DNA from: a virus | Reading direction: 5' to 3' (one strand) | Virus record (IMG/VR): IMGVR_UViG_3300045988_183636 | Length of the DNA stretch: 64,000 bases | In this document: piece after piece, positions 10,635 through 58,382 of the stretch | Layout of the letters: every line of letters starts with the position of its first letter | How positions within the stretch are numbered: the stretch's first letter is position 1 | Translations under genes and position numbers: made by a program | The notes under the pieces: generated by a model | What the model was told of the DNA's origin: nothing | What the model saw: the letters and a program-made list of their open reading frames with translations, nothing else | Database searches by the model: none

Positions 10635-10718
10635 GGCAACCTTCGGTGGCAATTTTCCCTATATTTTCTCTTTTCCCAAGATTTTTTCAAAACTTTGTAA
10701 AAAAAAATTCAAAATCCT

Positions 10719-13890: not shown

Positions 13891-16527
13891 TCAGAGGTAT
13901 TCGTCGATGTCGTCGTAGTCCTCACGGGTATCTGCCATATCCTCGCATCTTCCCGTTACTTCCGGGGCGGTCGCCTCATGCTCATCTTCGAGGTCTTTCA
14001 GACGGCTGCCGCTTACCATTACATAGGCATCCTTCGTGGAAAGATTTTCGCGGGAGAAAGCGAGAAGGTCTTCTTCGGATGGTTCGGAGAAGAAACTGCC
14101 GATCTCCGGGAGTTCGCCGTGTTCCTTCACATAATTGTCGTAGGCTTCTTGAAAGTACAACTCCACGGAGTTGTTGTATTTCAGGACGGAACAGGACTCG
14201 TCCGCATCAGTATAGGGGGCAATTTCCTCCAACAAATCTTCTTTGGCATTAACTTCTCCAGCTGCGATCGCTTCATACAAATCACACAGATTTGGATATT
14301 TTTCTTCATATTCGCTGTTGAGAAAACCTACAATATTGTCGTTATCCAATATAACCAGTAAATCTCCGGTAAGAGGCGGCGTCATTCCTGCAAATTGACG
14401 GATGTTGTCATTTACCATCTCGTTGTAACCATTTCCCATAAGTACATCCGGGTACGGGGCCTCTTCGCACCACTTTGCAAGCACCGGGGCAAACTGGTCA
14501 ATCTGTCGGTCATCCGCAAACTCGATGTTGTCAAAGACGAGCTTCCCGCCATCTGCAGTCTGCCATGCTTCCGCCTGCGCAAGAATCTTCCCAGATGTTT
14601 TGTCTTCGATCACAAAGAATCCGGCATCCGGGTTTGCCAGTCCATATATCATGGCTGTTTCTCCTGCGCCCCTAAGATGCTGGCAGCAATTAGTGTCATA
14701 ACCGATCATGACCTGCCGCGGGTCTTTGGCGTCCATGATGTAGGCTCTGTAATCGCCAAGTTCCACCTCCGTTGTTGGAAGGGTGCATTTACAGTCGGCA
14801 AACTTAAAATCCGGATATGACTTTTCGATTTCCTGAATTTCAAGCAGTGCCCTCCCTCTTGAAATCTGTGCTCTTACAGCATCTACATTGTCTGATGCAT
14901 CAATGGTGATACTGTTCTTGTATTTAACGATATCCTTTACCAGATTCTGGCTGACATCTGGATGAAAAGCTACCCATTTGGCAAGATCTTTTAAATGTTC
15001 GTCGTTCTTTTGGCAGCTTTCACATAACAGGACGGAAGCATAATCTTTATGTGGATTTTCAAGGATGACATTCTTTACGGTGTTTACATCGAAGTTCATT
15101 GCAAACAGTGTCGCTTCCACATCACAGAACCGGTTCCCTTTATTACAGGAACGCATCGCCATGACTGCATCACGGAACTTCTTTTCCTCGAAGGATTTTA
15201 CGATATCCTCTGGCGCAATGTCTAACTCTGTGGAAGCGATGGTAAGGGCATCGATGATCTTTGGCACCACACCGCAGCTTCTTTTGTCTAAACGGAACAA
15301 CGCCGTCAGCTGTTCTTTCGCTTTTGCATCCACGCTGTTTTTGATGTTGTAAAACCCGATGGCCTGGAAATCCTTTTTGAACTGCACTGCTGTTTGTTCC
15401 AGCTTCCCACTATGTTCCGCATTACAGAGCTTGGATACCAGAACCGGGGAATATACATCTTTTCCAAGGATATCGGCAGCTTCTTTTGCGATATCCAGAC
15501 ACTTCTGGTCCTCAAGTCCGTCTGACTGTTCCTGCGTTAGAGTAAAAGCTTTGTATGTAATATCTGATCCCCTGTAATTGATCACAAGGTCATCGGAACA
15601 GCCATTAAGGGCATCGCAAAATGTCAGGTCATCCGGCAAATGAAGTTCCTTTAAACCGGAACAATTTTCTAATGCACCCAAACCAAGATTTTTAACACCA
15701 TCTGGAATAGCAATGGATGTTAAATTGACGCAATCCTTAAATGCATAGGCTTGAATCTCTGTCGTCTGATCTGGAACTTTAATTTTTTCCAGAGAGCTAC
15801 ATCCTGCGAATGCGGCTCTCTCAATACGCGTCACACTGTCTGGAATCTTAACGGAATGCAGCTTCCTGCAATCTTGAAATGTGCTCGCCTCAATATCGGT
15901 TATCCCATCCGGAATGGCAACAGAACTTAATTTGTTACAGCCCGAAAACGCATTTTTCTCAATACGTGTCACACTGTCCGGAATTTCAATTTTTTCTAAC
16001 GAGTTGCAGCCAGCAAATGCACTATAGTTGATAGCGGTTACGCTATCTGGAATTTTAACAGAGGATAGACTGCTACAATCTTCAAATAGACTGTTCTCAA
16101 TATTTGTTACTCTATTCGGTATTTCAATATGAGTTAACCCGGTGCATCCGTAAAATGCACCTTCTTCAACGCTTGTCACGCTATCCGGAATATCGATTTC
16201 TGTTAAAGAGACACATTCACCTAATGCGCCTGCACCGATCCTTGCCACGCTTTCTGGAATTTTCACACTTTTTAATGCATCGCAGCCGTAGAATGTACTT
16301 TCTCCAATGGATACAACGCCATCTGGAATAACAACAGATGTTAATTCTTTGCACCAGGAAAATGCTCCATTTTTAATCCCTGTTAATTTACATTCTTCTC
16401 CTTTATAAATCACTTTCTCTGGAAGTACCACATCGCCTTTTTTGGGAATTGGCTTTCCTGTTGCGGCATCCACACAGCCAGCGAAATTTTCCTCCGTAAG
16501 TTCAAATTCTTTCAATTTTTTTGTCAC
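13891..16527 (-). CDS. large BspA-type leucine-rich-repeat protein (N-terminal LRR_5 repeats, large C-terminal domain of unknown function)
   Basis: about ten tandem IPD(S/G)VT.I...AF..C..L repeats in the N-terminal 300 aa; 878 aa in total. Confidence 0.7.
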   Translation of the reverse strand: MTKKLKEFELTEENFAGCVDAATGKPIPKKGDVVLPEKVIYKGEECKLTGIKNGAFSWCKELTSVVIPDGVVSIGESTFYGCDALKSVKIPESVARIGAGALGECVSLTEIDIPDSVTSVEEGAFYGCTGLTHIEIPNRVTNIENSLFEDCSSLSSVKIPDSVTAINYSAFAGCNSLEKIEIPDSVTRIEKNAFSGCNKLSSVAIPDGITDIEASTFQDCRKLHSVKIPDSVTRIERAAFAGCSSLEKIKVPDQTTEIQAYAFKDCVNLTSIAIPDGVKNLGLGALENCSGLKELHLPDDLTFCDALNGCSDDLVINYRGSDITYKAFTLTQEQSDGLEDQKCLDIAKEAADILGKDVYSPVLVSKLCNAEHSGKLEQTAVQFKKDFQAIGFYNIKNSVDAKAKEQLTALFRLDKRSCGVVPKIIDALTIASTELDIAPEDIVKSFEEKKFRDAVMAMRSCNKGNRFCDVEATLFAMNFDVNTVKNVILENPHKDYASVLLCESCQKNDEHLKDLAKWVAFHPDVSQNLVKDIVKYKNSITIDASDNVDAVRAQISRGRALLEIQEIEKSYPDFKFADCKCTLPTTEVELGDYRAYIMDAKDPRQVMIGYDTNCCQHLRGAGETAMIYGLANPDAGFFVIEDKTSGKILAQAEAWQTADGGKLVFDNIEFADDRQIDQFAPVLAKWCEEAPYPDVLMGNGYNEMVNDNIRQFAGMTPPLTGDLLVILDNDNIVGFLNSEYEEKYPNLCDLYEAIAAGEVNAKEDLLEEIAPYTDADESCSVLKYNNSVELYFQEAYDNYVKEHGELPEIGSFFSEPSEEDLLAFSRENLSTKDAYVMVSGSRLKDLEDEHEATAPEVTGRCEDMADTREDYDDIDEYL

Positions 16528-19647: not shown

Positions 19648-20493
19648 ATGAGCTATTACAAAGTAAGAAGTGTTGCATTTAAGCGGTCTATTGGAGAAAT
19701 CTATGTTACCTGTGCCGATTCGTCTCTGCGCCCACTCAAGTATTACAGGAGCGAATACGCAGAGAATATTGAGGATTTCGCAGAAAAATGCAAGCTGTTC
19801 TGGGTGGATGTCCTGTCTGGAAATTTCCAGTTTACGAAGAGTAATCAATGGCATTATTATGTTAAGAATGCTTATGCAGAAATGCACCTGATTGCACACA
19901 ACATCGACATTTTCAGCAAGGATTTGGATTACAGAACTAATTTTTATAATGAATTGCAAGAGTATGTTGCAAAAACTTACCTTGTACCTCTTGTAACAAA
20001 GGAAGCAAAACGTATCGATATTGATTTCGAAGCAGATTTTGCCGAGAGATGTCAGAAAAGATGGGATGAGATTGATAAGGAACGTGCCGAAAAGAAGCAG
20101 ATCAGCATCCGTGCAGCTTTGATATCAGATGTATTTCCTGGATGGGATACGCTTTTGAGTAAAAAAGAGAATCGTATCATTGTTGCAAAGAGTCAGAATT
20201 ACGATAATCATGGTTTGCTGGATAATTCAGATAAAACAGCTGTTCTACTACCAGAAGGCAGTGGAAATGATTGGCGCTGGATTGCGTACGCAAATATGGA
20301 AGATCTTCCGGAGATTCTGGAAAAATATCCGCAACTTGTAAGTGCTATCACTGTCGAAGCATCATATCAGTCCGGAGAGCGTGCTGTAATGGATGGCTAT
20401 ACAAAAATCTGCCAGAAACCAGATGGGAAGGCTCTGTATGTAGAAAATAGTAATGGAAAAGTATCCTGGGCAGAGGAAACTGGATATTGCTAG
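19648..20493 (+). CDS. hypothetical protein
   Basis: 281-aa ORF with RBS GAGAGGAAATT. Confidence 0.55.
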   Translation: MSYYKVRSVAFKRSIGEIYVTCADSSLRPLKYYRSEYAENIEDFAEKCKLFWVDVLSGNFQFTKSNQWHYYVKNAYAEMHLIAHNIDIFSKDLDYRTNFYNELQEYVAKTYLVPLVTKEAKRIDIDFEADFAERCQKRWDEIDKERAEKKQISIRAALISDVFPGWDTLLSKKENRIIVAKSQNYDNHGLLDNSDKTAVLLPEGSGNDWRWIAYANMEDLPEILEKYPQLVSAITVEASYQSGERAVMDGYTKICQKPDGKALYVENSNGKVSWAEETGYC

Positions 20494-21546: not shown

Positions 21547-21576
21547 TTGACAATTTTCCAGATGGCGCAATATGTG
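21547..21576 (+). promoter_or_regulatory. class-1 promoter (TTGACA variant)
   Basis: ttgacaattttccagatggcgcaatatgtg. Confidence 0.55.
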
Positions 21577-21580
21577 TATT

Positions 21581-21720
21581 GTAAAGGTCATAAACCGGGC
21601 TGCCAGGGTTACCGGCTGGCAGAAATCCTTTCGATATTTGTTTACGCTTCCGGGGAAACCCGGAAAGGAGCAGGAGGACAGCAGCACATGCTGCTTCCGG
21701 GTCCGATTCCCGGATGCTTC
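21581..21720 (+). ncRNA. conserved structured 5' leader, copy A (shared ~95 nt core, then a tRNA-like T-arm minihelix)
   Basis: gtaaaggtcataaaccgggctgccagggttaccggctggcag...tccggggaaacccgga...ccgggtccgattcccgg; near-identical cores at 33143 and 38169. Confidence 0.5.
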
Positions 21721-21787: not shown

Positions 21788-24091
21788 ATGAATCAGAATA
21801 AGAAGATAGCAGAGAAAAAATCAAGACCATACCAGCAGGAATGCATTGATAAGGTAGACAGCTTAAAAGAAGGAAGATTCCTGATTGCTCTTGCAACAGG
21901 GCTTGGGAAGACATGGATCTTCTCCCACTTTAAGAGATACGGAAGGGTACTTATTCTTTCACACAGGGATGAACTGGTCAACCAGCCGAGACGGTATTTC
22001 GACTGTAGTTTTGGCGTAGAAAAGGCAGAAAACCATTCCAATGGGGAAGAGGTAGTATCTGCGAGTGTTCAGACACTCAGCCATGACTCCCGTCTTAAGC
22101 AGTATAAGCCGGACGATTTCCACACGATCATCATTGATGAGGCGCACCACGCTGCCGCACCATCCTATAAGAAGATCTTAAATTATTTTTCCGGCGCTAA
22201 GCGTGTAATCGGTGTCACGGCAACTCCGAAGCGTGGCGACAACGTCCGGTTAGATGACGTTTTTAACGAGATTATTTATGCAAAGGATCTTCGTTGGGGG
22301 ATTAAAAATAAATATTTAAGTCCGGTGCACTGCCGGGAGGTCCGTGCAAAATATTCCCTGAAAGGCGTAAAAAAATCTATGGGGGATTTTAATGTATCCG
22401 ATTTGGACGGTTGTATTACGGAAGAAGCTGTAATAAGTGTTGCAAAAGTTCTTACAGACTGTCTCCAGGAGAATCGGCATATTCTTATTTATTGTACTAC
22501 TGTCAGAACCTGTAATTTCCTGAAGGCAGTAGTTGACAAACTGCTCCCGGAAAAAGAACGTGGCAGTGTTGCTGTTTTATCAGGGAAAACACAGGAAGAA
22601 GATAGAAAAAATATGCTTGATGGTTTTATGAACGGGAGTGTCCGCGCCATTATTAACTGCATGGTTTTAACAGAAGGTACAGATCTTCCTATTGCGGATA
22701 CCATTATCAACTTCCGGCCGACGTGCAACGCGTCTTTGTATCAGCAGATCATCGGAAGAGGAACCCGGCTCTATGAAGGTAAGGAAAACTGTTTATGCAT
22801 TGATATTCTTCCAGATGATGGCAGCGGGACAAGAAATCTGTGTACAGCTCTTACTCTTTTTGGTATAGATGCAAAACTTCTTGGAAAGAAACAGTCTCGA
22901 ATGCTTGAAGGTGAGATTGATCCGCTTGAGATTAGCGATGAAATTGCAGGACGATTTGCAGAACTTACAAAGGCGTATGAATATCGGTTGGAGCAGGTTA
23001 ATCGCTTTGTGCAGGAGCAGGAAGAAATTATATCTTCTGCGCGGAAGAAACCACATGCAGATTTAAGCGACCTTGCGCATGCAGTAGATAAATATAATTC
23101 AAAGAAAATGGATGAATTCCAAAATGATTATGATTTTCTTGGAATGGATTACTCACTTATGCCGGATACGGAACATCGTTATTGTATCAAACCTACATGG
23201 AATGACCATATTTACCTTGCTGATCCAGATGTTATGGGTAATACAACAGTTACGTTTGATCTTACTGCCAGTGTCGGGAAATATTATATCGGTGAAATGA
23301 AAATGCAGGATGCAATTTCATTTGTTCATGATTTTTGTATGGTATCTCCAGATTATATGAAATATTCCTGGAACGTGGCATTACAAGATGAATGGGGGAA
23401 AATAAAAGCAACTGAAAATCAAATTGGACGTCTTATGAATGAGTATGACGGGTTTCACAAAGGAAATATTAACAAACTTCAAGCATCCAGACTGATTGAT
23501 CTTGCCTCTCGTATTTCGAAGATGAAGGCAGAGGGGAAAATGATGCTTATTACACCAAGAATGCAGGAAAAAACAATTGATAAAAAAAAGAAAATGTTTA
23601 AGGAAATACTCGAAAAGGAACTGAGGGCAAAAGAGCAGGGGCGTAGTGAGTTTGGAGAATTCCAGTCGAAAATCTTTGCTTTGGCAGAAAAAAAGAAAAA
23701 AGACGAAGAGAAATTAAAGAACCAAAAGCCTTTGGAAGAAGAAATGCTCGAAAATGGGGCGATTACAGTTAATATTGCTGTTTTTAGTTCAAAAAAAACA
23801 GCAAGCGATGCGCAGATAAAATTTCTTGGTAATTTAAAAGATAAATTAAAAAACAGAGGAGTGGCTGTCGATAAAAAAATTCCTTATATAGGAATGGGAG
23901 CAGAAGAGGCAAGTGTATATATTACTATATTAAAAACGCTTGTAGATCGTAACGTAGACCTTATAAAATATGGTAAAAAAATTTATTTTAATCCAAATAC
24001 AATCATGAGTGTTGTATTAAAACTAAAGGACACTTCATCCAGAGAAATTAAATGTTGTATCCCGTTCGAAAAAATAGAAGAATTGAGATAA
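21788..24091 (+). CDS. SF2 DEAH-box helicase (ResIII-like) with a long Lys-rich C-terminal extension
   Basis: motif I ALATGLGKT, motif II DEAHH, motif III VTATP, motif VI QIIGRGTR; no HD nuclease domain. Confidence 0.75.
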   Translation: MNQNKKIAEKKSRPYQQECIDKVDSLKEGRFLIALATGLGKTWIFSHFKRYGRVLILSHRDELVNQPRRYFDCSFGVEKAENHSNGEEVVSASVQTLSHDSRLKQYKPDDFHTIIIDEAHHAAAPSYKKILNYFSGAKRVIGVTATPKRGDNVRLDDVFNEIIYAKDLRWGIKNKYLSPVHCREVRAKYSLKGVKKSMGDFNVSDLDGCITEEAVISVAKVLTDCLQENRHILIYCTTVRTCNFLKAVVDKLLPEKERGSVAVLSGKTQEEDRKNMLDGFMNGSVRAIINCMVLTEGTDLPIADTIINFRPTCNASLYQQIIGRGTRLYEGKENCLCIDILPDDGSGTRNLCTALTLFGIDAKLLGKKQSRMLEGEIDPLEISDEIAGRFAELTKAYEYRLEQVNRFVQEQEEIISSARKKPHADLSDLAHAVDKYNSKKMDEFQNDYDFLGMDYSLMPDTEHRYCIKPTWNDHIYLADPDVMGNTTVTFDLTASVGKYYIGEMKMQDAISFVHDFCMVSPDYMKYSWNVALQDEWGKIKATENQIGRLMNEYDGFHKGNINKLQASRLIDLASRISKMKAEGKMMLITPRMQEKTIDKKKKMFKEILEKELRAKEQGRSEFGEFQSKIFALAEKKKKDEEKLKNQKPLEEEMLENGAITVNIAVFSSKKTASDAQIKFLGNLKDKLKNRGVAVDKKIPYIGMGAEEASVYITILKTLVDRNVDLIKYGKKIYFNPNTIMSVVLKLKDTSSREIKCCIPFEKIEELR

Positions 24092-24160: not shown

Positions 24161-24190
24161 TTGACGTTTGTTTAAATGGCGCAATATTCA
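24161..24190 (+). promoter_or_regulatory. class-1 promoter serving as leader promoter of CRISPR mini-array 1
   Basis: ttgacgtttgtttaaatggcgcaatattca, ~75 nt before the first repeat. Confidence 0.5.
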
Positions 24191-24265: not shown

Positions 24266-24499
24266 GTTGCACCACGCAAGGGTGCAGGGGTGAAATATTA
24301 TACTGAATCGTCGCTGCCTGCATAGATATAGTTGCATCCCTTATGGGATGTATGGGTTGAAATTCAATAGAAACAGATGCATTCGGAGGTGTTACAAGTT
24401 GCACCCCCGCAAGGGGTGCATGGGTTGAAAATAAGAAATGGTAGGAAGGAATTCAGATATGAACATTAGTTGCATCCCGCAAGGGTGCAGGGGTGAAGT
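24266..24499 (+). CRISPR. CRISPR mini-array 1 (type I-C-like repeats, 4 divergent repeats, 3 spacers)
   Basis: GTTGCACCACGCAAGGGTGCAGGGGTGAAAT / GTTGCATCCCTTATGGGATGTATGGGTTGAAAT / GTTGCACCCCCGCAAGGGGTGCATGGGTTGAAAAT / GTTGCATCCCGCAAGGGTGCAGGGGTGAAGT; spacer 2 is shared with array 4. Confidence 0.7.
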
Positions 24500-33108: not shown

Positions 33109-33139
33109 TTGACGATTTTTCAAAAGGCGCAATATGTAT
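33109..33139 (+). promoter_or_regulatory. class-1 promoter
   Basis: ttgacgatttttcaaaaggcgcaatatgtat. Confidence 0.6.
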
Positions 33140-33142
33140 AGT

Positions 33143-33283
33143 GTAAAGGTCATAAACCGAGCTGCCAGGGTTACCGGCTGGCAGAAAATCCTTTCGAAAA
33201 ATGTTTACGTTCCGGGAAATCCCCGGAAAGGATAGTGGGTACGCAGCGCAAGTTATTCCGGGTTCGACTCCCGGATATCCTTT
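33143..33283 (+). ncRNA. conserved structured 5' leader, copy B (tRNA-like acceptor/T-arm minihelix at its 3' end)
   Basis: same ~95 nt core as A and C; AAGGATA-(hairpin)-CCGGGTTCGACTCCCGG-ATATCCTT forms an acceptor-stem + T-arm (TTCGACT loop) module. Confidence 0.5.
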
Positions 33284-34456: not shown

Positions 34457-34518
34457 GAAAGAAGCCGGGGAATCCCGACTTTTCTGCTGCATTGTGTGTA
34501 TATTTTAACGCCGCCTGC

Positions 34519-34591
34519 GGGATTCGAACCCGCGGATAAAGAGTTCAAAGCTCCCTGCGTTAACCTTTTCGCCAAGGCGGAGCACACCCGG
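34519..34591 (-). tRNA. tRNA-Gln (anticodon UUG), no encoded CCA
   Basis: manual fold: 3-bp D-stem, anticodon loop CUUUGAA, T-arm GCGGG-TTCGAAT-CCCGC; 1:72 mismatch. Confidence 0.6.
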
Positions 34592-34592
34592 A

Positions 34593-34660
34593 AGGACTCG
34601 AACCCTCGTTACCGGTTTTGGAGACCAGTTTCTGTCCATCAGACAGGTGCATAACAGGCG
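34593..34660 (-). tRNA. tRNA-Trp (CCA), compact 68-nt form with a reduced D-arm
   Basis: anticodon arm CUGGU-CUCCAAA-ACCGG matches Trp; T-arm GAGGG-TTCGAGT-CCTTC; D region is only a 4-bp stem with a 5-nt loop; acceptor stem has two G.U pairs. Confidence 0.45.
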
Positions 34661-34664
34661 ATAA

Positions 34665-34735
34665 TGGAATCGAACCATTGTTTTCTGAGTCAGAATCAGA
34701 TGTCTTACCATTGAACGAATCGCCCAGTATCCCCA
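34665..34735 (-). tRNA. tRNA-Gln (CUG)
   Basis: anticodon loop UUCUGAC; 3-bp D-stem; T-arm AATGG-TTCGATT-CCATT. Confidence 0.6.
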
Positions 34736-34737
34736 AA

Positions 34738-34812
34738 GGGACTCGAACCCTTAACCGACAGATTAGAAATCTGTTGCTCTTTCCAATTGAGCTATGGGGA
34801 TATATAGCGCAG
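34738..34812 (-). tRNA. tRNA-Arg (UCU)
   Basis: D-arm GCTC..GAGC; anticodon loop UUUCUAA in stem ACAGA/UCUGU; T-arm AAGGG-TTCGAGT-CCCTT. Confidence 0.65.
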
Positions 34813-34818
34813 ACACCG

Positions 34819-34907
34819 GGGATCGAACCCGGACAGCGGGTGTGCCGCATGCCACATTAGCAGTGTGGAGGGGTACCATTTACCTTTATATGTCTGCATA
34901 AGAGGCA
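34819..34907 (-). tRNA. tRNA-Ser (GCU), long variable arm
   Basis: 89 nt; anticodon loop CUGCUAA in stem CCACA/UGUGG; T-arm CCGGG-TTCGATC-CCCGG. Confidence 0.55.
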
Positions 34908-34912
34908 TCGGA

Positions 34913-34984
34913 GGGGATCGAACCCTCGCCTTCCGGGTTGCAGCCGGACGCCTTCGCCGTTTGGCTACGATGCCATATAATTCT
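34913..34984 (-). tRNA. tRNA-Cys (GCA)
   Basis: anticodon loop CUGCAAC in stem UCCGG/CCGGA; T-arm GAGGG-TTCGATC-CCCTC. Confidence 0.6.
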
Positions 34985-35014
34985 TCCCGATAAGAGAAGA
35001 TGAGCGCTGGGGCA

Positions 35015-35098
35015 GGGAGTCGAACCCTGATATCCTTTCGGAATGACGGTTTTCAGGACCGTTGCTTTACCAGTTGAGCCACCACAGCAAAAATAAAA
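35015..35098 (-). tRNA. tRNA-Ser (UGA)-like, long variable arm, unusual C33
   Basis: 84 nt; anticodon loop CCUGAAA; variable stem UCC-gaaa-GGA; T-arm CAGGG-TTCGACT-CCCTG. Confidence 0.5.
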
Positions 35099-35333
35099 GC
35101 ATACACCTCTCAATCGAAAGATGTATGCTTTGCAATTCCAGGTATTTCCAATATTCTCCCGGAAATTTCCCTACAATGACCACATTTCTTTCAATTTGAG
35201 ACAATATTTATTTGCACGACAACTACGCCAGATACATGACTGCGACTGACTCATACTTGCCTGTGAATATTGTCTCATTACTGCTGTAATCATTGATTTT
35301 CCCTTCCTTTCCTTGGTTTTCTTGAATATTTAG

Positions 35334-35407
35334 TGTGTCTGGTGGGACTTGAACCCGACGACCCCACGATTAAAAGTCGCGTGCTCTGCCAACTGAGCTA
35401 CAGACAC
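35334..35407 (-). tRNA. tRNA-Lys (UUU)
   Basis: canonical fold: acceptor GTGTCTG/CAGACAC, D-arm AGCTCAGTTGGCAGAGC, anticodon loop CUUUUAA. Confidence 0.7.
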
Positions 35408-35412
35408 ATAAG

Positions 35413-35484
35413 CGGATCAGGAGGGAATCGAACCCTCATCTTCCGGTAGACAGCCGGATGTACTAGCCGCTATACTACAGATCC
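35413..35484 (-). tRNA. tRNA-Asp (GUC)
   Basis: anticodon loop CUGUCUA in stem UCCGG/CCGGA; T-arm GAGGG-TTCGATT-CCCTC. Confidence 0.6.
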
Positions 35485-35488
35485 ATAA

Positions 35489-35561
35489 AGCTCCCGTCCG
35501 GCTTCGAACCGGAAACCTTCTGATTACAAGTCAGATGCACTACCAGTTGTGCTACAGGAGC
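35489..35561 (-). tRNA. tRNA-Thr (UGU)
   Basis: D-arm GCACAACTGGTAGTGC; anticodon loop CUUGUAA; T-arm TCCGG-TTCGAAG-CCGGA. Confidence 0.65.
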
Positions 35562-35567
35562 AGGAAC

Positions 35568-35638
35568 ACTTCCGACGGGTGCTGCCCCGCTATCTCCGCC
35601 GTGACAGGGCGGTGACTCTGTTGTTTGTCCTCGGAAGT
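35568..35638 (-). ncRNA. non-canonical tRNA-like element (8-bp acceptor-like stem, anticodon-like arm CCGCC-CUGUCAC-GGCGG, 4-bp T-like hairpin, no D-arm)
   Basis: ACTTCCGA...TCGGAAGT closing stem; sits inside the tRNA array at tRNA spacing. Confidence 0.35.
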
Positions 35639-35645
35639 AAATAAG

Positions 35646-35727
35646 TGCGCCGGGGAGGACTCGAACCTCCGGTGTTTCTTTGTGGCTGATTTACAGTCAG
35701 CTGCTGTCGCCTCTGAGCCACCGACGC
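35646..35727 (-). tRNA. tRNA-Tyr (GUA), long variable arm
   Basis: 82 nt; anticodon loop CUGUAAA in stem GCUGA/UCAGC; T-arm GGAGG-TTCGAGT-CCTCC. Confidence 0.6.
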
Positions 35728-35732
35728 ATAAG

Positions 35733-35804
35733 CTGGTCCGGAGGGTCTCGAACCCTCAACGCCCCGGTTAACAGCCGGGTGCTCTACCATTGAGCTACGG
35801 ATCA
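35733..35804 (-). tRNA. tRNA-Asn (GUU)
   Basis: D-arm AGCTCAATGGTAGAGC; anticodon loop CUGUUAA; T-arm GAGGG-TTCGAGA-CCCTC. Confidence 0.65.
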
Positions 35805-35805
35805 G

Positions 35806-35877
35806 AGCATGTGACGGGTCTCGAACCCGCCCGTCCTGCTTGGAAGGCAGGTGTGCCGCCAACAACACTTCACATGC
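35806..35877 (-). tRNA. tRNA-Gly (UCC)
   Basis: anticodon loop CUUCCAA in stem CCUGC/GCAGG; T-arm with TTCGAGA loop. Confidence 0.6.
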
Positions 35878-35942
35878 ATGCGGATAAAAGAAGTGCCTGT
35901 TTTCTCTTATCCATTCAGTTTTTTTACCGCATCGCTGCGGAG

Positions 35943-36014
35943 TGGACAGGAGTGGTAACGATCCACCCTGTAAGGATTTTCAGTCCTTCGCTAATCCATC
36001 TCAGCTACCTGTCC
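35943..36014 (-). tRNA. putative tRNA-Phe (GAA) with a non-canonical T-loop (ATCGTTA)
   Basis: perfect 7-bp acceptor GGACAGG/CCTGTCC, U8, anticodon stem AAGGA/UCCUU with loop CUGAAAA; lacks the TTCGA T-loop signature. Confidence 0.4.
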
Positions 36015-37234: not shown

Positions 37235-37266
37235 TTGACGAAATTTCAAAAGGCGCAATATATGTA
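37235..37266 (+). promoter_or_regulatory. class-1 promoter
   Basis: ttgacgaaatttcaaaaggcgcaatatatgta. Confidence 0.6.
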
Positions 37267-37289: not shown

Positions 37290-37622
37290 TTGAAATGTTT
37301 GACATGCAAGAAACACTGGTCGCAGGGAGGCCGCTGTTCAGAGAACGTGAGAAACTGCCTGCATTATGAGGAAGAACCAAGAGGAAAAATGGTCCGCACA
37401 GAACTGTCTTTTCGTATGGATGCAGAGGCGGAAACTCCGGTGGTCAGATTTGGAGAGAAAATACTGGTTTCCGATGGTTCAAAAGCGGTCGAGATGACTG
37501 TGGTCAAGATCAACTGGGTTAATCTTCGGGATATGCTCTGCAATGTATCCGCGGATTATCATGAGAATGAGATGCCGCGATTTGAGAAAGAAAAGAAGTT
37601 CAAAGCATTACATGGAAAATAG
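37290..37622 (+). CDS. hypothetical protein
   Basis: RBS AAAGGAGGAGG; 110 aa; stop abuts CRISPR mini-array 2. Confidence 0.5.
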   Translation: MKCLTCKKHWSQGGRCSENVRNCLHYEEEPRGKMVRTELSFRMDAEAETPVVRFGEKILVSDGSKAVEMTVVKINWVNLRDMLCNVSADYHENEMPRFEKEKKFKALHGK

Positions 37623-37728
37623 TTGCATTCCAGTGGAATGCATGGGGTGAAAGAAATAGGCAAATCGCATGACAATTTCTGAAATTAAATTGTTGCGCTC
37701 CCGTGGAGGGGGGCGTATGGATTGAAAT
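37622..37728 (+). CRISPR. CRISPR mini-array 2 (2 divergent I-C-like repeats, 1 spacer)
   Basis: GTTGCATTCCAGTGGAATGCATGGGGTGAAAG ... GTTGCGCTCCCGTGGAGGGGGGCGTATGGATTGAAAT. Confidence 0.55.
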
Positions 37729-38105: not shown

Positions 38106-38134
38106 AAAATATTTCAAAACATTTCCAAAAACTT

Positions 38135-38167
38135 TTGACGATTTTTTAAATGGCGCAATATGTATCA
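38135..38167 (+). promoter_or_regulatory. class-1 promoter
   Basis: ttgacgattttttaaatggcgcaatatgtatca. Confidence 0.6.
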
Positions 38168-38168
38168 T

Positions 38169-38316
38169 GTAAAGGTCATAAACCGAGCTGCCAGGGTTAT
38201 CGGCTGGCAGAAATCTTTTCGATATTTGTTTACACTCCGGGGAAACCCGGAAGGGGTAGTGAGGACGCAGCGTGTGCTGTTTCCGGGTTCGATTCCCGGG
38301 TATCCCTTTTGACTGC
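38169..38316 (+). ncRNA. conserved structured 5' leader, copy C (tRNA-like minihelix GGGTA..CCGGGTTCGATTCCCGG..TATCCC), part of a ~420 nt 5' UTR
   Basis: near-identical to copies A and B over ~95 nt, then a hairpin plus acceptor/T-arm module. Confidence 0.5.
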
Positions 38317-39316: not shown

Positions 39317-39420
39317 GCTGCATCATGTGCGGGGGTGTATGGATTGAAATGTCGGAGTATGGGTAAGAATCATATATATTCCTACGTTGTGCTCCTCCCG
39401 GTTGGTGCACGGGTTGAAAT
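39317..39420 (+). CRISPR. CRISPR mini-array 3 (2 divergent repeats, 1 spacer)
   Basis: GCTGCATCATGTGCGGGGGTGTATGGATTGAAAT ... GTTGTGCTCCTCCCGGTTGGTGCACGGGTTGAAAT. Confidence 0.5.
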
Positions 39421-41011: not shown

Positions 41012-41230
41012 GTTGCGCCCCATTGGGTGCATGGGTTGAAATCTTTATGACCTTCTGAAAAGTGAGGGCATCTTAGTTGCACCCCCGCAAGGGATGTATG
41101 GGTTGAAATTCAATAGAAACAGATGCATTCGAAGGCGTTACAAGTTGCACCCCGCGAGGGGTGTATGGGTTGAAATTGCAGAAAGCTCAGGATTGGAAGG
41201 TTGCATCCTATGGGATGCATGGATTGAAAC
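41012..41230 (+). CRISPR. CRISPR mini-array 4 (4 divergent repeats, 3 spacers; spacer 2 is almost identical to array-1 spacer 2)
   Basis: GTTGCGCCCCATTGGGTGCATGGGTTGAAAT / GTTGCACCCCCGCAAGGGATGTATGGGTTGAAAT / GTTGCACCCCGCGAGGGGTGTATGGGTTGAAAT / GTTGCATCCTATGGGATGCATGGATTGAAAC. Confidence 0.65.
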
Positions 41231-41304: not shown

Positions 41305-41333
41305 GCAATTTTTTAAAAATTTTCCAAAATCTT

Positions 41334-41365
41334 TTGACGATTTTTTAAAAGGCGCAATATACATA
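41334..41365 (+). promoter_or_regulatory. class-1 promoter driving an ORF-less transcript
   Basis: ttgacgattttttaaaaggcgcaatatacata. Confidence 0.55.
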
Positions 41366-41369
41366 TTGA

Positions 41370-41570
41370 AGGGATAAACAGGGGCTTACCGTTTGTTTCT
41401 TCAATAAGAGTTTTTCTCTTATATGCCTCCTTAAGTTTCCTGCGCTGCATTTACAGCATTTTGGCAGCGCAGGGGGAATCCACAGGACTGCATTTGACGT
41501 TGTGTGGCGGCCTGCTCATCCGGTTCAACCCCGGAGGATTCCCTTACCGCTTATTTTTGCGGAGACAAAA
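41370..41570 (+). ncRNA. putative small non-coding RNA with a tRNA-like module (7-bp acceptor-like stem GGAATCC/GGATTCC, T-arm TCCGG-TTCAACC-CCGGA) and a terminal hairpin
   Basis: promoter to terminator-like hairpin with no ORF; the T-arm region ctgctcatccggttcaaccccggaggattccc is homologous to ctgttcatccggttcgagttcggaggattcc in the leader at 10925. Confidence 0.4.
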
Positions 41571-41595: not shown

Positions 41596-41626
41596 TTGAC
41601 GATTTTTTAAAAGGCGCAATATGTGT
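41596..41626 (+). promoter_or_regulatory. class-1 promoter of the cas operon
   Basis: ttgacgattttttaaaaggcgcaatatgtgt; its first ~40 transcribed nt duplicate those downstream of the 41334 promoter. Confidence 0.6.
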
Positions 41627-41668
41627 ATTGAAGGAATAAACAGGGGCTTGCCGCTGTTGATTACCAGA

Positions 41669-41700
41669 GTTAAAAGTTGTGCCCCTATGGGGTGCATGGG
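41669..41700 (+). promoter_or_regulatory. degenerate CRISPR-repeat-like sequence in the cas5 5' UTR
   Basis: GTTGTGCCCCTATGGGGTGCATGGGTAATAAG has the repeat hairpin but a mutated 3' handle; sits 16 nt before cas5. Confidence 0.5.
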
Positions 41701-41715
41701 TAATAAGAGAAAGGA

Positions 41716-42390
41716 ATGGAAAAAGAAAAAATGGGAGTGAAACTAAAAGTCTGGGGAGATTACGCATTGTTCACCAGACCAGAACTGAAAACTGAACGGT
41801 ATACATACGATGTGATGACACCGTCGGCGGCTAGAGGAATTCTGGAATCTATCTACTGGCATCCGGGACTTCGGTGGTATGTAGACAAGATTCATGTATT
41901 AAATCCGATTGCCACTACGAGCGTGAGAAGAAATGAACTTCTCAGTAAGATACCAAAGTCAAATATGCTGCAGGCATACAACGGCGGGGATGTGAAACTG
42001 TATAACTCGTCAAGAGACGATATTATCCAGAGGGCATCTGTTATTCTCCGGGATGTCTGCTATGTGATTGAGGCGCATTTTGAAATGACAGGGAAAGCGA
42101 GCCCAACAGACAGCCCGGCAAAGTTTATAAGTATCTTTAACAACAGGGCAAGAAAAGGGGCATGTTATTCGATGCCGTATTTTGGTGTAAGGGAATTCCC
42201 GGCACACTTTGAACTCTGCGAAGGAGATGAAAAGATCCCATCCTACTATGAAGGACTTCCGGATAAAGATCTCGGGCTGATGCTTTATGATCTGGATTAC
42301 TCCTGCGGTAGAGATATCCAGCCAATGTATTATCATGCGATTATGAAAAACGGCGTTATTGACGTTGGGAACAGTGAGGTGCTTCGATGA
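41716..42390 (+). CDS. cas5: Cas5c (Cas5d) of type I-C CRISPR-Cas
   Basis: KLKVWGDYALFTRPELKTERYTYDVMTPSAARGILESIYWHP matches the Cas5d N-terminal signature; start may be the second ATG at 41731. Confidence 0.8.
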   Translation: MEKEKMGVKLKVWGDYALFTRPELKTERYTYDVMTPSAARGILESIYWHPGLRWYVDKIHVLNPIATTSVRRNELLSKIPKSNMLQAYNGGDVKLYNSSRDDIIQRASVILRDVCYVIEAHFEMTGKASPTDSPAKFISIFNNRARKGACYSMPYFGVREFPAHFELCEGDEKIPSYYEGLPDKDLGLMLYDLDYSCGRDIQPMYYHAIMKNGVIDVGNSEVLR

Positions 42391-44126
42391 TCCTTCAGTC
42401 ACTTGTGAAATTATATGAAACACTTGCGGATCAGGGAAAAGTGTCCCGTCCTGGCTGGTGTAATGCAAAGGTATCCTATGCGGTGGTTTTAAACCATGAT
42501 GGGACGATTAAAGATATTGTTTCCGTGAAACAGAAAGTGAAGAGAGGAAAGAAGACTGTTGAAATTCCAATAATTATGCAGGTTCCAGAGATGGTCACCC
42601 GCGCTAACAACATTGCCTCCAGCTTTCTCTGCGAAAATGCAAAGTATCTCTTTGGGATTGACGAAAAGATGAGTTTGCGTACACTGGAATGTTTTAAGGC
42701 GGCAAAGAAAAAACATCTTGATATTCTTGATGTTGTGGATTCACCTGTAGCACAGACGGTATGTAACTTTTTCCGTTCATGGGATCCGGAACAGGCGTTG
42801 GATCAACCGGCTGTTGCAAAACTTGCAGAAGAGTTTTATAAAGGCGGAAACCTCGTTTTTGAAGTAGATGGGGAATATGTGCATGATAATGAAGAAGTCC
42901 GCAGGGCATGGATGGATTACAGCAGTGTACCATATGAAATGGTAACTGGAAGATGCCTTATTACTGGAGAGGAAGCGGAGATTGCCCGCACGCACGGGAA
43001 AATCAAAGGAGTTCCGGGAGCACAGTCATCTGGCGCGTCGCTTGTATCATTTAACGGAGCATCCCTTGAGTCTTATGAAAAAACACAGAGCTACAACGCG
43101 CCGATTAGCACCTATGCGGCGTATGCATATGTGACCGCGCTGAATTACTTGCTTTCTACGGACGGGTATCACAGCAAGGTAGGAGGTTCCATGGTGGTTT
43201 TCTGGACAGATTCCGGGGATGTGGATGATGTGAGCAGACTGCGGAAGATGATGGGAAGCATCAATGAAAAGGATCACACCCCTACAGATACGGATGAAAA
43301 ACTGTACGTCCTCTGCCTTGCACCAAATGCCGGGCGAATTGCAGTCCGGTTCTTCTATGAGGATGCGATCGGGGTAATCTGGGAAAACCTGTCCGAACAT
43401 GCCAGTCGGATGAAGATTGTAAAACCAGTATTTGAGGATCAAGAATTTATCAATATCTGGCAGATGCTCATGGAGACAGTCAACCAGAATCTTACAGATA
43501 AAACACCTGTCCCGCATATGTCAGCAATGACGTTACAGTCAGTCATTTCGGATACACCGTATCCGCAGAGTCTGTATGCAGGTGTGTTATCTCGTATCCG
43601 CGCGGAGCACAAAGGTGTTACTTACAGAAAAGCATCGATTATTAAAGCTTTTTTAATAAAGAACTACAAATGGGAGGAAGGAAAAAATATGGAAGCATTA
43701 AATGAAGGCTGTAAGGATCGGGCATATATCCTTGGAAGACTGTTTGCGGTTATGGAAAAGGCACAGAAAGAAGCAGTTGGCAATATCAACCAGACAATTT
43801 GTGATAAGTTTTACAATTCCGCGTGCACAACACCAAGATCGATCTTTCCAGTACTGATCAGGCTATCTAACAGTCATTTAAGTAAGTTGAAACGGACAAA
43901 ACCGGGGAGAGGATATTATTTTACAGCTAAAATGCAGGATTTAATGGATAAAATTCCGGTAACAGATGATGATCCGGGATTCCCGCGGCGTTTCTCATAT
44001 GAGGATCAGGGTAAGTTTGCACTTGGTTATTATCATCAGATGCGGGCGGAATATACAAGCAGTAAGTTAAAAGATAATGATTCAGAAGGTGATCAGACAA
44101 ATGCAGAGAATATGGAGGAAAACTAA
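42387..44126 (+). CDS. cas8c: Cas8c (Csd1) large subunit, type I-C
   Basis: MILQSLVKLYETLADQGKV... N-terminus; 579 aa; 4-nt overlap with cas5; position between cas5 and cas7. Confidence 0.75.
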   Translation: MILQSLVKLYETLADQGKVSRPGWCNAKVSYAVVLNHDGTIKDIVSVKQKVKRGKKTVEIPIIMQVPEMVTRANNIASSFLCENAKYLFGIDEKMSLRTLECFKAAKKKHLDILDVVDSPVAQTVCNFFRSWDPEQALDQPAVAKLAEEFYKGGNLVFEVDGEYVHDNEEVRRAWMDYSSVPYEMVTGRCLITGEEAEIARTHGKIKGVPGAQSSGASLVSFNGASLESYEKTQSYNAPISTYAAYAYVTALNYLLSTDGYHSKVGGSMVVFWTDSGDVDDVSRLRKMMGSINEKDHTPTDTDEKLYVLCLAPNAGRIAVRFFYEDAIGVIWENLSEHASRMKIVKPVFEDQEFINIWQMLMETVNQNLTDKTPVPHMSAMTLQSVISDTPYPQSLYAGVLSRIRAEHKGVTYRKASIIKAFLIKNYKWEEGKNMEALNEGCKDRAYILGRLFAVMEKAQKEAVGNINQTICDKFYNSACTTPRSIFPVLIRLSNSHLSKLKRTKPGRGYYFTAKMQDLMDKIPVTDDDPGFPRRFSYEDQGKFALGYYHQMRAEYTSSKLKDNDSEGDQTNAENMEEN

Positions 44127-45039
44127 GATGAGCACACCAATTAAGAACAGATATGATTTCGTAGTATTATTCGACGTAGAGAATGGAAATCCGAACGGTG
44201 ATCCGGATGCCGGAAATATGCCGAGAGTTGATCCAGAGACTGGCATCGGGCTTGTGACAGATGCCTGCATAAAGCGCAAGATCCGTAATTATGTGGAAAC
44301 TGTAAAAGAAGATGCAGCCGGGTTCAAGATCTATATTAAAGAGGGGGTCCCGCTGAACCGGAGTGACCTTAAGGCAGTCGAAAGTCTTGGTATTGACGTC
44401 GGTGACGACAAAAATGCACTTGAAGATGTAAAGAAGCTGAAAAAGACAGATGAAGATGTGGATCTTAAGCTCCGTGACTATATGTGTAGTAATTTCTATG
44501 ATATCCGTACATTTGGTGCTGTCTTGACTACCTTTACAAAGGCGGCATTAAACTGTGGGCAGGTACGTGGCCCGGTACAGATTGGTTTTGCAAAAAGTAT
44601 TGATCCTGTTTTCAGCCAGGATATTACTGTAACCAGAGTTGCAATCACAACGGAAAAGGATGCGGAAAAGAAAAATACAGAAATGGGAAGAAAGAGTATT
44701 ATTCCTTATGGACTTTACCGTGTGGAGGGATATATTTCTGCTAATCTTGCCCGTAAGACCACCGGCTTTTCTGAAGACGATCTGGAACTGCTTTGGGAAG
44801 CAATCATTAACATGTTTGAGAATGACCATTCCGCAGCACGCGGGAAGATGGCAGTGCGTGAGCTCATCGTATTCAAGCATAACAGCGAGCTTGGCAATTG
44901 TCCATCGTACAAACTGTTTGAAACTGTTGATGTTAAGAAGAATGATGGTGTTGAGTTTCCTCGTAAATATTCCGATTATGCAGTGACTATTCATGAGGAT
45001 GCGATTCCGGATGGCGTGACAATGACTCGCAAAATCTAA
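44127..45039 (+). CDS. cas7: Cas7c (Csd2) backbone subunit, type I-C
   Basis: RYDFVVLFDVENGNPNGDPDAGNMPR signature; RBS GGAGGAAAAC before ATG 44127 (the ORF-track start at 44077 is inside cas8). Confidence 0.8.
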
Positions 45040-45289: not shown

Positions 45290-46001
45290 GCTACGCCCCA
45301 TGGAGGGGCGTATGGATTGAAAATACCGCAACAATTAAAGGCAATGAAAATCTTGTACGCTACGCCCCATGGAGGGGCGTATGGATTGAAAATGATTGTT
45401 ATTGTTTTTTATTCATGGAGAGGAAAGCTACGCCCCATGGAGGGGCGTATGGATTGAAAAGTAAGGTTTCGTCTCGAAGCCTTTATTCTGTTTTGCTGCG
45501 CCCCATGGAGGGGCGTATGGATTGAAATACCAAAATCTTTTGACATTCTTATAAATGGTAACAGCTACGTCTTATGGGGTACGTATGGATTGAAATCATA
45601 ATAATTGTAGAGATCTCAATACAAAATAAAGCTGCGTCTCATGGAATACGTATGGATTGAAATGAAAAGGCGAGTTTGCGAAAGCAGATATTGGAATGTT
45701 GCGTCTCGTGGAGTACGTATGGATTGAAATTCCAACTTTAACTACATAACTATCCTGATAAACTTGCTGCACCCCATGGAGAGTGTATGGATTGAAATTT
45801 AAAAAATCATGGATAACATCTGCGATAAGACGTTGCACCTCGCTAGGGGTGTATGGGTTGAAATTTCCATAATCGGTAGCCAATTATTATCATTAGGTGT
45901 TGCACCCCATAGAGGGTGTATGGATTGAAATTATATAAAAATGATGAATATGTAAAAAAAATAAAAGAGTTACGCTCCATGGAGTGCGTATGGCTTGAAA
46001 C
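45290..46001 (+). CRISPR. main type I-C CRISPR array (11 repeats, 10 spacers), leader-proximal repeats conserved and distal repeats degenerate
   Basis: consensus GCTACGCCCCATGGAGGGGCGTATGGATTGAAAAT; spacers 33-36 nt; the last repeat GTTACGCTCCATGGAGTGCGTATGGCTTGAAAC lies 70 nt before the 46072 CDS. Confidence 0.85.
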
Positions 46002-52906: not shown

Positions 52907-53098
52907 TTTCTTGCGGAGCAGAGCAGAGGAAGGCTCACCGGGCTCATGACCTGGGTGTCGGATGTTCGATTCCTTTCTCCGCAATTAATTTTAAAAAAGG
53001 GAGGTTATAACATGTTCTAACTGATTAAAAAACATAAACAAGCATTCGTTCAAAAGAAAGATTCGTATGTGAAAAAAGGATGGGAGGAAAAGAAAATC

Positions 53099-58351: not shown

Positions 58352-58382
58352 TTGACGAATTTTGAGATGGATAAATATATAT
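58352..58382 (+). promoter_or_regulatory. class-1 promoter variant
   Basis: ttgacgaattttgagatggataaatatatat (has -35 and spacing, lacks the GCGCAATAT box). Confidence 0.4.

Follow-up and report, generated by a model that had tools for sequence, protein, structure and literature searches.

The DNA analysed here is a stretch of 64,000 nt from a virus (IMG/VR record IMGVR_UViG_3300045988_183636), referred to below as the window. It carries a type I-C CRISPR system, and the fourth spacer (M4) of its main array is the subject of this report. A near-perfect target of M4, next to a TTC protospacer-adjacent motif (PAM), was located on the promoter of a small putative toxin gene in the chromosome of Roseburia faecis. 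We propose that the CRISPR RNA (crRNA) derived from M4 may silence this promoter.

The CRISPR locus and the class-1 promoters

The main array is adjoined by three genes, cas5c, cas8c and cas7, all of which scored above the NCBIfam cut-offs (Table 1). M4 lies 490 bp 3' of the element's own cas7. Compared with homologues from chromosomal type I-C loci of Lachnospiraceae, Cas5c was 62% identical, Cas8c 45% and Cas7 78-80%.

No Cas3, Cas4, Cas1 or Cas2 was matched by tblastn, using Lachnospiraceae I-C queries, when the window was extended by 10 kb in both directions (84 kb). For Cas3, this bore out an earlier model-made reading of the sequence (the original prediction), which had described the Cascade as Cas3-less. 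The only large helicase, encoded at 21788-24091, was considered as a Cas3 and rejected: it matched no Cas3 model and was RadD/ResIII-like. The original prediction had also placed M4 at 45528-45563. The spacer is there, but repeat 4 ends with position 45528, and the true start is 45529.

Table 1. Positions of the features discussed, numbered from the first letter of the window
Feature	Position	Strand	Remarks
Class-1 promoter 5' of cas5c	41596..41623	+	presumed driver of the cas genes and array; same arrangement in the related element L113
cas5c	41731..42390	+	TIGR01876, E 8.6e-52; open reading frame (ORF) from 41716, gene called from 41731 in related contigs
cas8c	42387..44126	+	TIGR01863, E 8e-119
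cas7	44128..45039	+	303 aa; TIGR02589, E 2e-102
Main CRISPR array	45290..46001	+	type I-C; 11 repeats of 33-34 nt (GCTACGCCCCATGGAGGGGCGTATGGATTGAAAN), 10 spacers
Spacer 3 (M3)	45461..45494	+	independent PAM datum; targets another mobile element
Repeat 4	45495..45528	+	intact hairpin, -15.3 kcal/mol; gives the 5' handle (..GGATTGAAAT) of the M4 crRNA
Spacer 4 (M4)	45529..45563	+	guide ACCAAAATCTTTTGACATTCTTATAAATGGTAACA; opens the strain-invariant trailer block
Repeat 5, 3' of M4	45564..45596	+	degenerate; 11-nt handle intact, hairpin weak
Class-1 promoter copy 41334, best own-sequence match to M4	41323..41357	+	25/35; exact 15-mer CCAAAATCTTTTGAC; PAM position TTT
Class-1 promoter copy 38135, other 25/35 own-sequence match to M4	38124..38158	+	PAM position ATT
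Block of 13 tRNA genes	34508-36014	-	opposite strand to nearly all protein genes
Single tRNA-Met	52911-52985	+	

The repeats were examined for the hairpin and handle of a type I-C repeat. Repeats 1-4 folded at -15.3 kcal/mol each, and the 11-nt handle (..ATTGAAA(N)) after the stem-loop was kept in 11 of 11 repeats with no more than one change. The trailer repeats (45564-46001) had decayed unevenly. Four of them (5, 6, 8 and 11) folded no better than shuffles, the stem of repeat 7 was weak, and repeats 9 and 10 formed stable hairpins with differing stem sequences. Compensatory changes preserving the hairpins of the trailer repeats were considered, and this held only in part: repeats 7, 9 and 10 form the stem, while 5, 6, 8 and 11 do not.

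The array was compared between the window and 10 other strains, giving 38 spacers from 11 strains. At the leader end the repeats were perfect and the spacers strain-specific, one strain having 10 unique spacers. At the trailer end the repeats were degenerate, and M4-M10 were the same in every strain compared. M4 itself was identical in nine of the 10 other strains and carried a 1-nt insertion in the tenth, the most divergent one. One strain (L005) kept M4 and had no leader-proximal spacer in common with the others.

The variation of the leader-end spacers between strains suggested that new spacers are still being acquired. Since this turnover took place with no cas1, cas2 or cas4 seen, adaptation is probably supplied in trans. 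A related element, L113, had the same class-1 promoter (described below) and a partial repeat before cas5c, and an array without M4-M10. The fixed block thus belongs to a single lineage.

The partial repeat, GTTGTGCCCCTATGGGGTGCATGGGT, consists of the hairpin only, without the handle, and lies at 41676-41701 in the 5' leader before cas5c. A counterpart was present in L113, at about L113:1965-1990. Such a site may serve the binding of Cas5c or processing by it, and thereby regulate the cas mRNA.

The original prediction had described M4 as similar to, without matching, a promoter that occurs 11 times in the window (class 1). The motif, TTGACGATTTTTnAAAnGGCGCAAT(AT), was indeed found in 10 copies with no more than three mismatches and in a weaker copy at 58352, where 0 were expected by chance. 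All 11 copies were on the + strand, 5' of genes or small repeat arrays. Judged by this position, they would be promoters. The -35 sequence is TTGACG or TTGACA, and 18 nt downstream is TATGTG or TATGTA.

Outside the window the motif was present in L113. Neither some 0.9 Mb of other gut-bacterial loci nor the remainder of the R. faecis loci contained it, with the exception of two copies in the insertion described below. Such confinement to the element family and the insertion suggested that class 1 is not a general host promoter.

With TTGAC in register, ungapped alignment of M4 with the 11 copies gave 18-25 matches of 35 in every case, so that the described resemblance was reproduced in one register. 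The copy at 10711, which the original prediction had quoted, gave 23/35. The copy at 41334, just 5' of the cas operon, had 15 contiguous matches at M4 positions 2-16, with position 1 mismatched. M4 did not match GGCGCAAT, where the motif is most conserved.

Of 500 shuffles of M4, three attained 25 matches at some site of the window; corrected for 18 spacers, this amounts to about 0.1. Other spacers reached 20-25 matches at random sites of the window. The likeness between M4 and the promoters is by itself only modestly unusual. It became interpretable when the true protospacer itself proved to belong to this promoter class, as a diverged copy that aligns with it colinearly.

Several class-1 promoters are followed by conserved 5' leaders. 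One leader family, GTAAAGGTCATAAACCGRGCTGCCAGGGTTAYCGGC, was present in three copies (about 21572-21620, 33134-33180 and 38160-38210) and another, ATTGAAGGRATAAACAGGGGCTTRCCG, in two (41359-41400 and 41621-41660). No Rfam family was assigned to these leaders at the gathering score. The 41334 promoter appears to drive a stretch of about 230 nt without an ORF of at least 60 aa.

The target of spacer 4 in Roseburia faecis

Metagenome contigs were scanned with a pattern consisting of the 19-nt core of M4 plus one base that excluded the array copies, and 16 loci were returned. Nine of them contained a 34/35 protospacer preceded by 5'-TTC (...AAAATTC, followed by ACCAAAATCTTTTGACATTCTTATAAATGGcAACA and then TATGTAAAATGAAG), and 15 of the 16 positions outside the search core matched. 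The remaining seven were unrelated sequences that shared the core only (23-25/35 overall, 4-6/16 outside the core). The identical 34/35 site with TTC was found in 10 further assemblies that were reached through a neighbouring gene, and in all 20 contigs carried it. The R. faecis type strain JCM 17581 carried a 33/35 version (L033:5546-5580).

The PAM was confirmed independently by spacer M3. Its protospacer, a perfect 34/34 match with TTC on the 5' side of the non-target strand, was located in IMGVR_UViG_3300011989_000479 (L122:9227-9260). This contig is a 37-kb integrative element with integrase and replication initiator genes, and thus the same array targets another mobile element too.

Other searches were negative. 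The exact 35-mer of M4 and its 24-nt PAM-distal part had no match in IMG/VR, nor had spacers 1, 6 and 9 an exact match there. The PAM plus the first 30 nt of M4 (33-mer) was not found in the GTDB species representatives; the type strain differs by one base in this part. None of the 38 spacers from the 11 strains matched INPHARED phages by blastn. A near-perfect match to any spacer was also absent from the window, its flanks and related loci.

All 21 copies of the M4 target found were in one chromosomal context of R. faecis, between housekeeping genes. The neighbours were fic, merR, pstSCAB, phoU, phoR/phoB, nadA, glmS and a signal peptidase gene, and the contigs were 97-99% identical to the complete JCM 17581 chromosome. 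That these contigs might be another part of the same element was considered and rejected, as the DNA in common with the window was limited to the promoter and the spacer, and the genes were housekeeping genes. No cas genes were seen in the flanks read (4-10 kb per locus).

Comparison of the target-bearing strains with target-free R. faecis revealed an insertion of about 1.5 kb, flanked by direct repeats of about 110 bp. Two orphan ORFs of the insertion run on the opposite strand, and the 170-aa one was found only in a narrow set of bacterial contigs. PADLOC and Pfam returned nothing convincing for the 170/202-aa ORF or for the 72-aa ORF.

Two class-1-type promoters were recognized in the insertion. 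The first (P1) is canonical, matching 31 of the 32 most conserved columns of the motif. After it come, in this order, a solitary type I-C repeat, ACATGTACCATACAAGTGGTACATGGATTGAAAT (-14.3 kcal/mol, 11-nt handle intact), 34 nt that look like a spacer, and a small hairpin. The spacer-like stretch, TTACACAGC..., was unrelated to M4.

The second promoter (P2) is a diverged class-1 promoter, colinear over 75 nt (TTGAC-N-AAATGGC-N-ATATGT-N-TGAAG). It matched the class-1 consensus at 48 of 75 positions, and the weakest copies in the window matched at 47-49. The M4 protospacer lies on P2, where it takes in the upstream A/T tract, the -35 sequence TTGACA and the spacer of 18 bp and stops at the edge of the -10 sequence TATGTA.

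On the 3' side of P2 we found a 5' leader with an inverted repeat (GCCAAAAG and CTTTTTGGC, by eye), a ribosome-binding site, AAAGGAGG, and a 29-aa ORF, MITYSTLFEFCKLIVAIISLIFQIFNHKK. The ORF matched the Pfam family Hol_Tox (PF16935), a family of small holin-like toxins, scoring 25.9 bits where the cut-off is 23.3 (E 9e-6). The peptide is hydrophobic and presumably toxic. No homologue of it was found in the window.

The target was therefore near what had been predicted in one respect and far from it in another. The original prediction expected a perfect target in a divergent version of the promoter, carried by a related competing phage, and suggested a search for exact protospacers that lie at promoters and have a TTC PAM. 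Such a protospacer, near-perfect (34/35) and on a diverged class-1 promoter, was obtained, but it is in the R. faecis chromosome and not in a phage. Nor did the predicted interference with a rival's early promoters hold: P2 drives a small gene of the Hol-Tox type, located between pst/phoU, nadA and glmS.

Strains without the insertion had another Hol-Tox-like gene at the same spot (E 0.042, below the Pfam cut-off). This allele had an ordinary-looking promoter (by eye) and no M4 target. The merR promoter nearby is a textbook TTGACT-17-TATAAT, whereas P1 and P2 were not called by the sigma-70 consensus scan. In the type strain the -35 sequence of P2 is TTAACA instead of TTGACA, which gives a weaker promoter consensus and the extra mismatch to M4.

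The solitary repeat and its 34-nt spacer were at L033:5366-5432 in JCM 17581 and at L016:10246-10312 in another strain, the spacer differing at two positions between the strains. No target for this spacer, TTACACAGCATAATCACC..., was present in the data at hand. A weak lead was TTC followed by TTACAtAGCATg in a response-regulator gene (L033:9588), with a rough p of 0.01-0.02. We also considered this crRNA-like RNA as the toxin's own antitoxin. This was rejected, as it had no seed match to P2, and its best site in the insertion was 8/10 with an ATT PAM.

The element and its other spacers

The element is widespread. The exact Cas7 protein was listed in 3564 blocks of a public collection, and 10 contigs fetched through Cas7 were 200-355 kb long and came from gut-type metagenome assemblies. 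The window contains 14 tRNA genes (Table 1), a CCA-adding enzyme, an NAD-dependent ligase, insertion sequence (IS) elements and mostly orphan genes. This gene content fits a huge phage.

Phage structural genes were not found in the 84 kb, and the cas region had no match in INPHARED by megablast. In IMG/VR, no relatives of Cas8c were found and the class-1 motif had no match. Based on these null searches, we took the element family as absent from both collections. That this human-gut element of about 300 kb is a phage is plausible.

Ten further ORFs of the window had no Pfam match, and no sigma factor was found among them. An 878-aa BspA-type leucine-rich-repeat protein is encoded at 13891-16527 on the - strand, against the general direction of transcription. 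In L113 (L113:1-5900), Cas7 is 92% identical; the element has an IS91-family transposase and a different array, of three spacers.

Besides the main array, the window contains four mini-arrays of degenerate type I-C repeats, all on the + strand (A, 24266-24499; B, 37622-37728; C, 39317-39420; D, 41012-41230). Mini-array A directly follows the class-1 promoter at 24161, and B and C are at the ends of genes preceded by the promoters at 37235 and 38135. They are conserved in other strains, and spacer D3 is only 23 nt long. No targets of the mini-arrays were found in the sequences at hand. The mini-arrays resemble the 'Cracr arrays' described for viruses.

One spacer is present twice, with two differences, in two mini-arrays (24364-24397 and 41110-41143). 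It matched a 355-aa gene of other strains (L001:17734-17767) at 26 of 34 positions, which none of 300 shuffles reached, and the window's own allele of this gene at 21 of 34. This suggests that it targets a variable gene in close relatives.

A leader-end spacer, TTGTATAGCCATCC..., was present only in strains L002, L004 and L008. It matched a gene of the window (20370-20404, - strand) at 26 of 35 positions, including 14 contiguous PAM-proximal bases, and 0 of 300 shuffles reached 26/35. Young spacers seem to be drawn from relatives that have diverged from the element.

Proposed silencing of the toxin promoter and comparison with known systems

The position of the M4 protospacer suggests a simple scheme. 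The M4 crRNA would be loaded in the element's Cas5c-Cas8c-Cas7 Cascade, which would recognize the TTC of P2. On P2, the Cascade would exclude RNA polymerase, and the toxin gene would remain silent while the element is in the cell. Because no nuclease was seen, occlusion of the promoter would be the simplest outcome. CRISPR interference would in this way serve as an 'antitoxin' or counter-defence against a host toxin promoter. Judged from these sequence features, silencing of the R. faecis Hol-Tox promoter P2 by the M4 crRNA and a nuclease-less Cascade is moderately probable.

The scheme would also account for the resemblance of M4 to the element's own promoters, P2 and these promoters being homologous. 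The own promoters would be spared. Their in-register PAM triplets were AAA, TCT, CTT, ATT, TTT and TAT, none of them TTC; position 1 was mismatched in all, and there were 10-17 mismatches of 35. Protection of the own copies by mismatches was part of the original prediction, and these figures agree with it.

Several observations weigh against silencing. Repeat 5, downstream of M4, folded at -3.9 kcal/mol, not above shuffles, and thus provides a degraded hairpin. M4 stands at the start of an old trailer block, where shared ancestry alone would also give such conservation. The absence of cas3 and of a self-target covers 84 kb of a genome of about 300 kb, and either could be elsewhere. The sigma-70 consensus scan made no call on the class-1 motifs. 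The target was present in a subset of R. faecis strains only, the marker gene of the insertion being listed in 45 blocks, compared with 3564 for Cas7. Finally, what makes R. faecis the probable host is the M4 match together with the shared sequence features.

Some of these points would be expected if M4 were inert: taken from the R. faecis chromosome, or from the donor of the insertion, by host adaptation, and persisting by descent. Trailer-end conservation is normal for CRISPR arrays, and M4 opens an invariant block with degenerate repeats. It mismatches the common target at one position and the type-strain site at two, and many R. faecis strains lack the target. On the other hand, a host spacer taken at random would seldom fall exactly over the -35 and spacer region of a promoter that serves a toxin gene and is, moreover, of the element's own class. 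The repeat 5' of M4 is intact, and every trailer repeat has the 11-nt handle. M4 has also survived in L005, where all younger spacers were replaced. We consider it unlikely that M4 is such a relic.

The Cascade might alternatively recruit a type I-C Cas3, from the host or from elsewhere in the 300 kb, and degrade the chromosome or the insertion. The array gains spacers without its own cas1, cas2 and cas4, so that host I-C proteins must be borrowed, and chromosomal Lachnospiraceae I-C loci with Cas3 and a 79%-identical Cas7 exist. The nearly full-length match is also unlike the partial pairing of regulatory crRNA-like RNAs. However, Cas8c, the subunit that recruits Cas3, is 45% identical to its chromosomal homologue, compared with 79% for Cas7. 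No cas3 was in the 84 kb, and cleavage needs no placement on a promoter. Destruction of the target DNA is thus distinctly unlikely.

It is very unlikely that the real targets are promoters of rival phages and that the insertion is a captured phage fragment. The two class-1-type promoters and the repeat-like RNA gene of the insertion are features of the element family, the flanking direct repeats of about 110 bp would fit a capture, and other spacers aim at relatives or mobile elements. All 21 copies, however, are in the same chromosomal context and none is in IMG/VR or INPHARED, the 170-aa gene is confined to the same narrow set of bacterial contigs, and L113 lacks the target.

Least probable of all is that M4 tunes the element's own class-1 promoters (especially those at 38135 and 41334) by partial seed pairing, as in CreR/CreA: the 15 contiguous matches at 41334 are in the range of 9-15 PAM-proximal pairs with which regulatory crRNA-like RNAs work, but the own sites have TTT or ATT instead of TTC and a mismatch at position 1, and a near-perfect target with the right PAM elsewhere explains the resemblance.

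If M4 does silence P2, the insertion itself might be a trap that senses phages. By copying the promoter class private to the invader, it would have a membrane toxin switched on only in the presence of the invader's transcription machinery, and the invader would answer with a fixed 'antitoxin' spacer that shuts the trap promoter. The repeat-mimic RNA driven by the class-1 promoter could load into, or poison, the invader's Cascade. We regard the trap as a doubtful, speculative extension. The presence of the invader's promoter type in a host locus nevertheless hints at an infection-triggered toxin, which, if true, could be a new defence principle.

The silencing proposed here can be compared with four kinds of known systems. 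Huge phages with I-C-like systems without Cas1, Cas2 and Cas3 have been described, for which transcriptional repression was proposed and spacers on host intergenic regions were noted (Al-Shayeb et al. 2020, PMC7162821). The idea was general there, whereas here the guide, the PAM, the promoter covered and the gene are identified. M4 would provide a concrete case of the gene silencing that has long been suggested for CRISPR systems without a nuclease on huge phages. In the gut the element is very common, and its probable host is a prominent butyrate-producing gut bacterium.

The viral crRNA-like Cracr RNAs have been shown experimentally to silence host cas promoters or CreT toxin promoters; they use host Cas proteins, lie outside cas loci and mimic the host CreA spacer by partial pairing (Liu et al., bioRxiv 10.1101/2024.10.29.618823). 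M4 is similar in that a mobile element aims a guide at a host toxin gene's promoter (on P2, the -35 and spacer region 5' of the Hol-Tox ORF), with silencing rather than cleavage as the likely effect, and Cracr guides are often stacked in array-like units. It differs in belonging to a genuine array that has Cascade genes of the element itself next to it, not outside a cas locus and dependent on host Cas. M4 also pairs at 34 of 35 positions rather than over a limited PAM-proximal part, and the adjacent host crRNA-like spacer is unrelated to it. In the present case the toxin is a peptide, of the Hol-Tox family, whose gene lies apart from any cas locus. M4 would thus extend the viral toxin-silencing guides in three ways: an own Cascade, full-length pairing, and a peptide toxin distant from cas genes.

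In the CreTA or 'CRISPR-supervised' modules (Li laboratory, which also described the Cracrs), the host's solitary repeats make use of Cascade to repress the promoters of toxin or defence genes (bioRxiv 10.1101/2024.12.27.630466). The insertion resembles these in having a solitary I-C repeat with the 11-nt handle, a spacer and a 3' hairpin beside a small toxin gene, and a PAM-flanked Cascade site on the toxin promoter. Its layout is that of single-repeat I-C crRNA-like RNAs. Unlike in CreTA, the spacer of the insertion's RNA does not match the toxin promoter (8/10 seed, ATT PAM). The matching guide comes from the invading element, and the flanks read contain no cas genes.

The fourth comparison is with the Vibrio phage ICP1, in which Seed et al. 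reportedly described, in 2013, a complete type I-F CRISPR system with Cas3 that destroys the DNA of the host's PLE island. In both cases, CRISPR spacers of a phage are directed against a host chromosomal element that the phage activates and that harms the phage. The differences are that no nuclease was seen here, and that a promoter, within an insertion of 1.5 kb, is the single target. The general principle has been published recently, and the present case is a specific one. In its logic, M4 would be closest to the attack of ICP1 on PLE, minus the nuclease.

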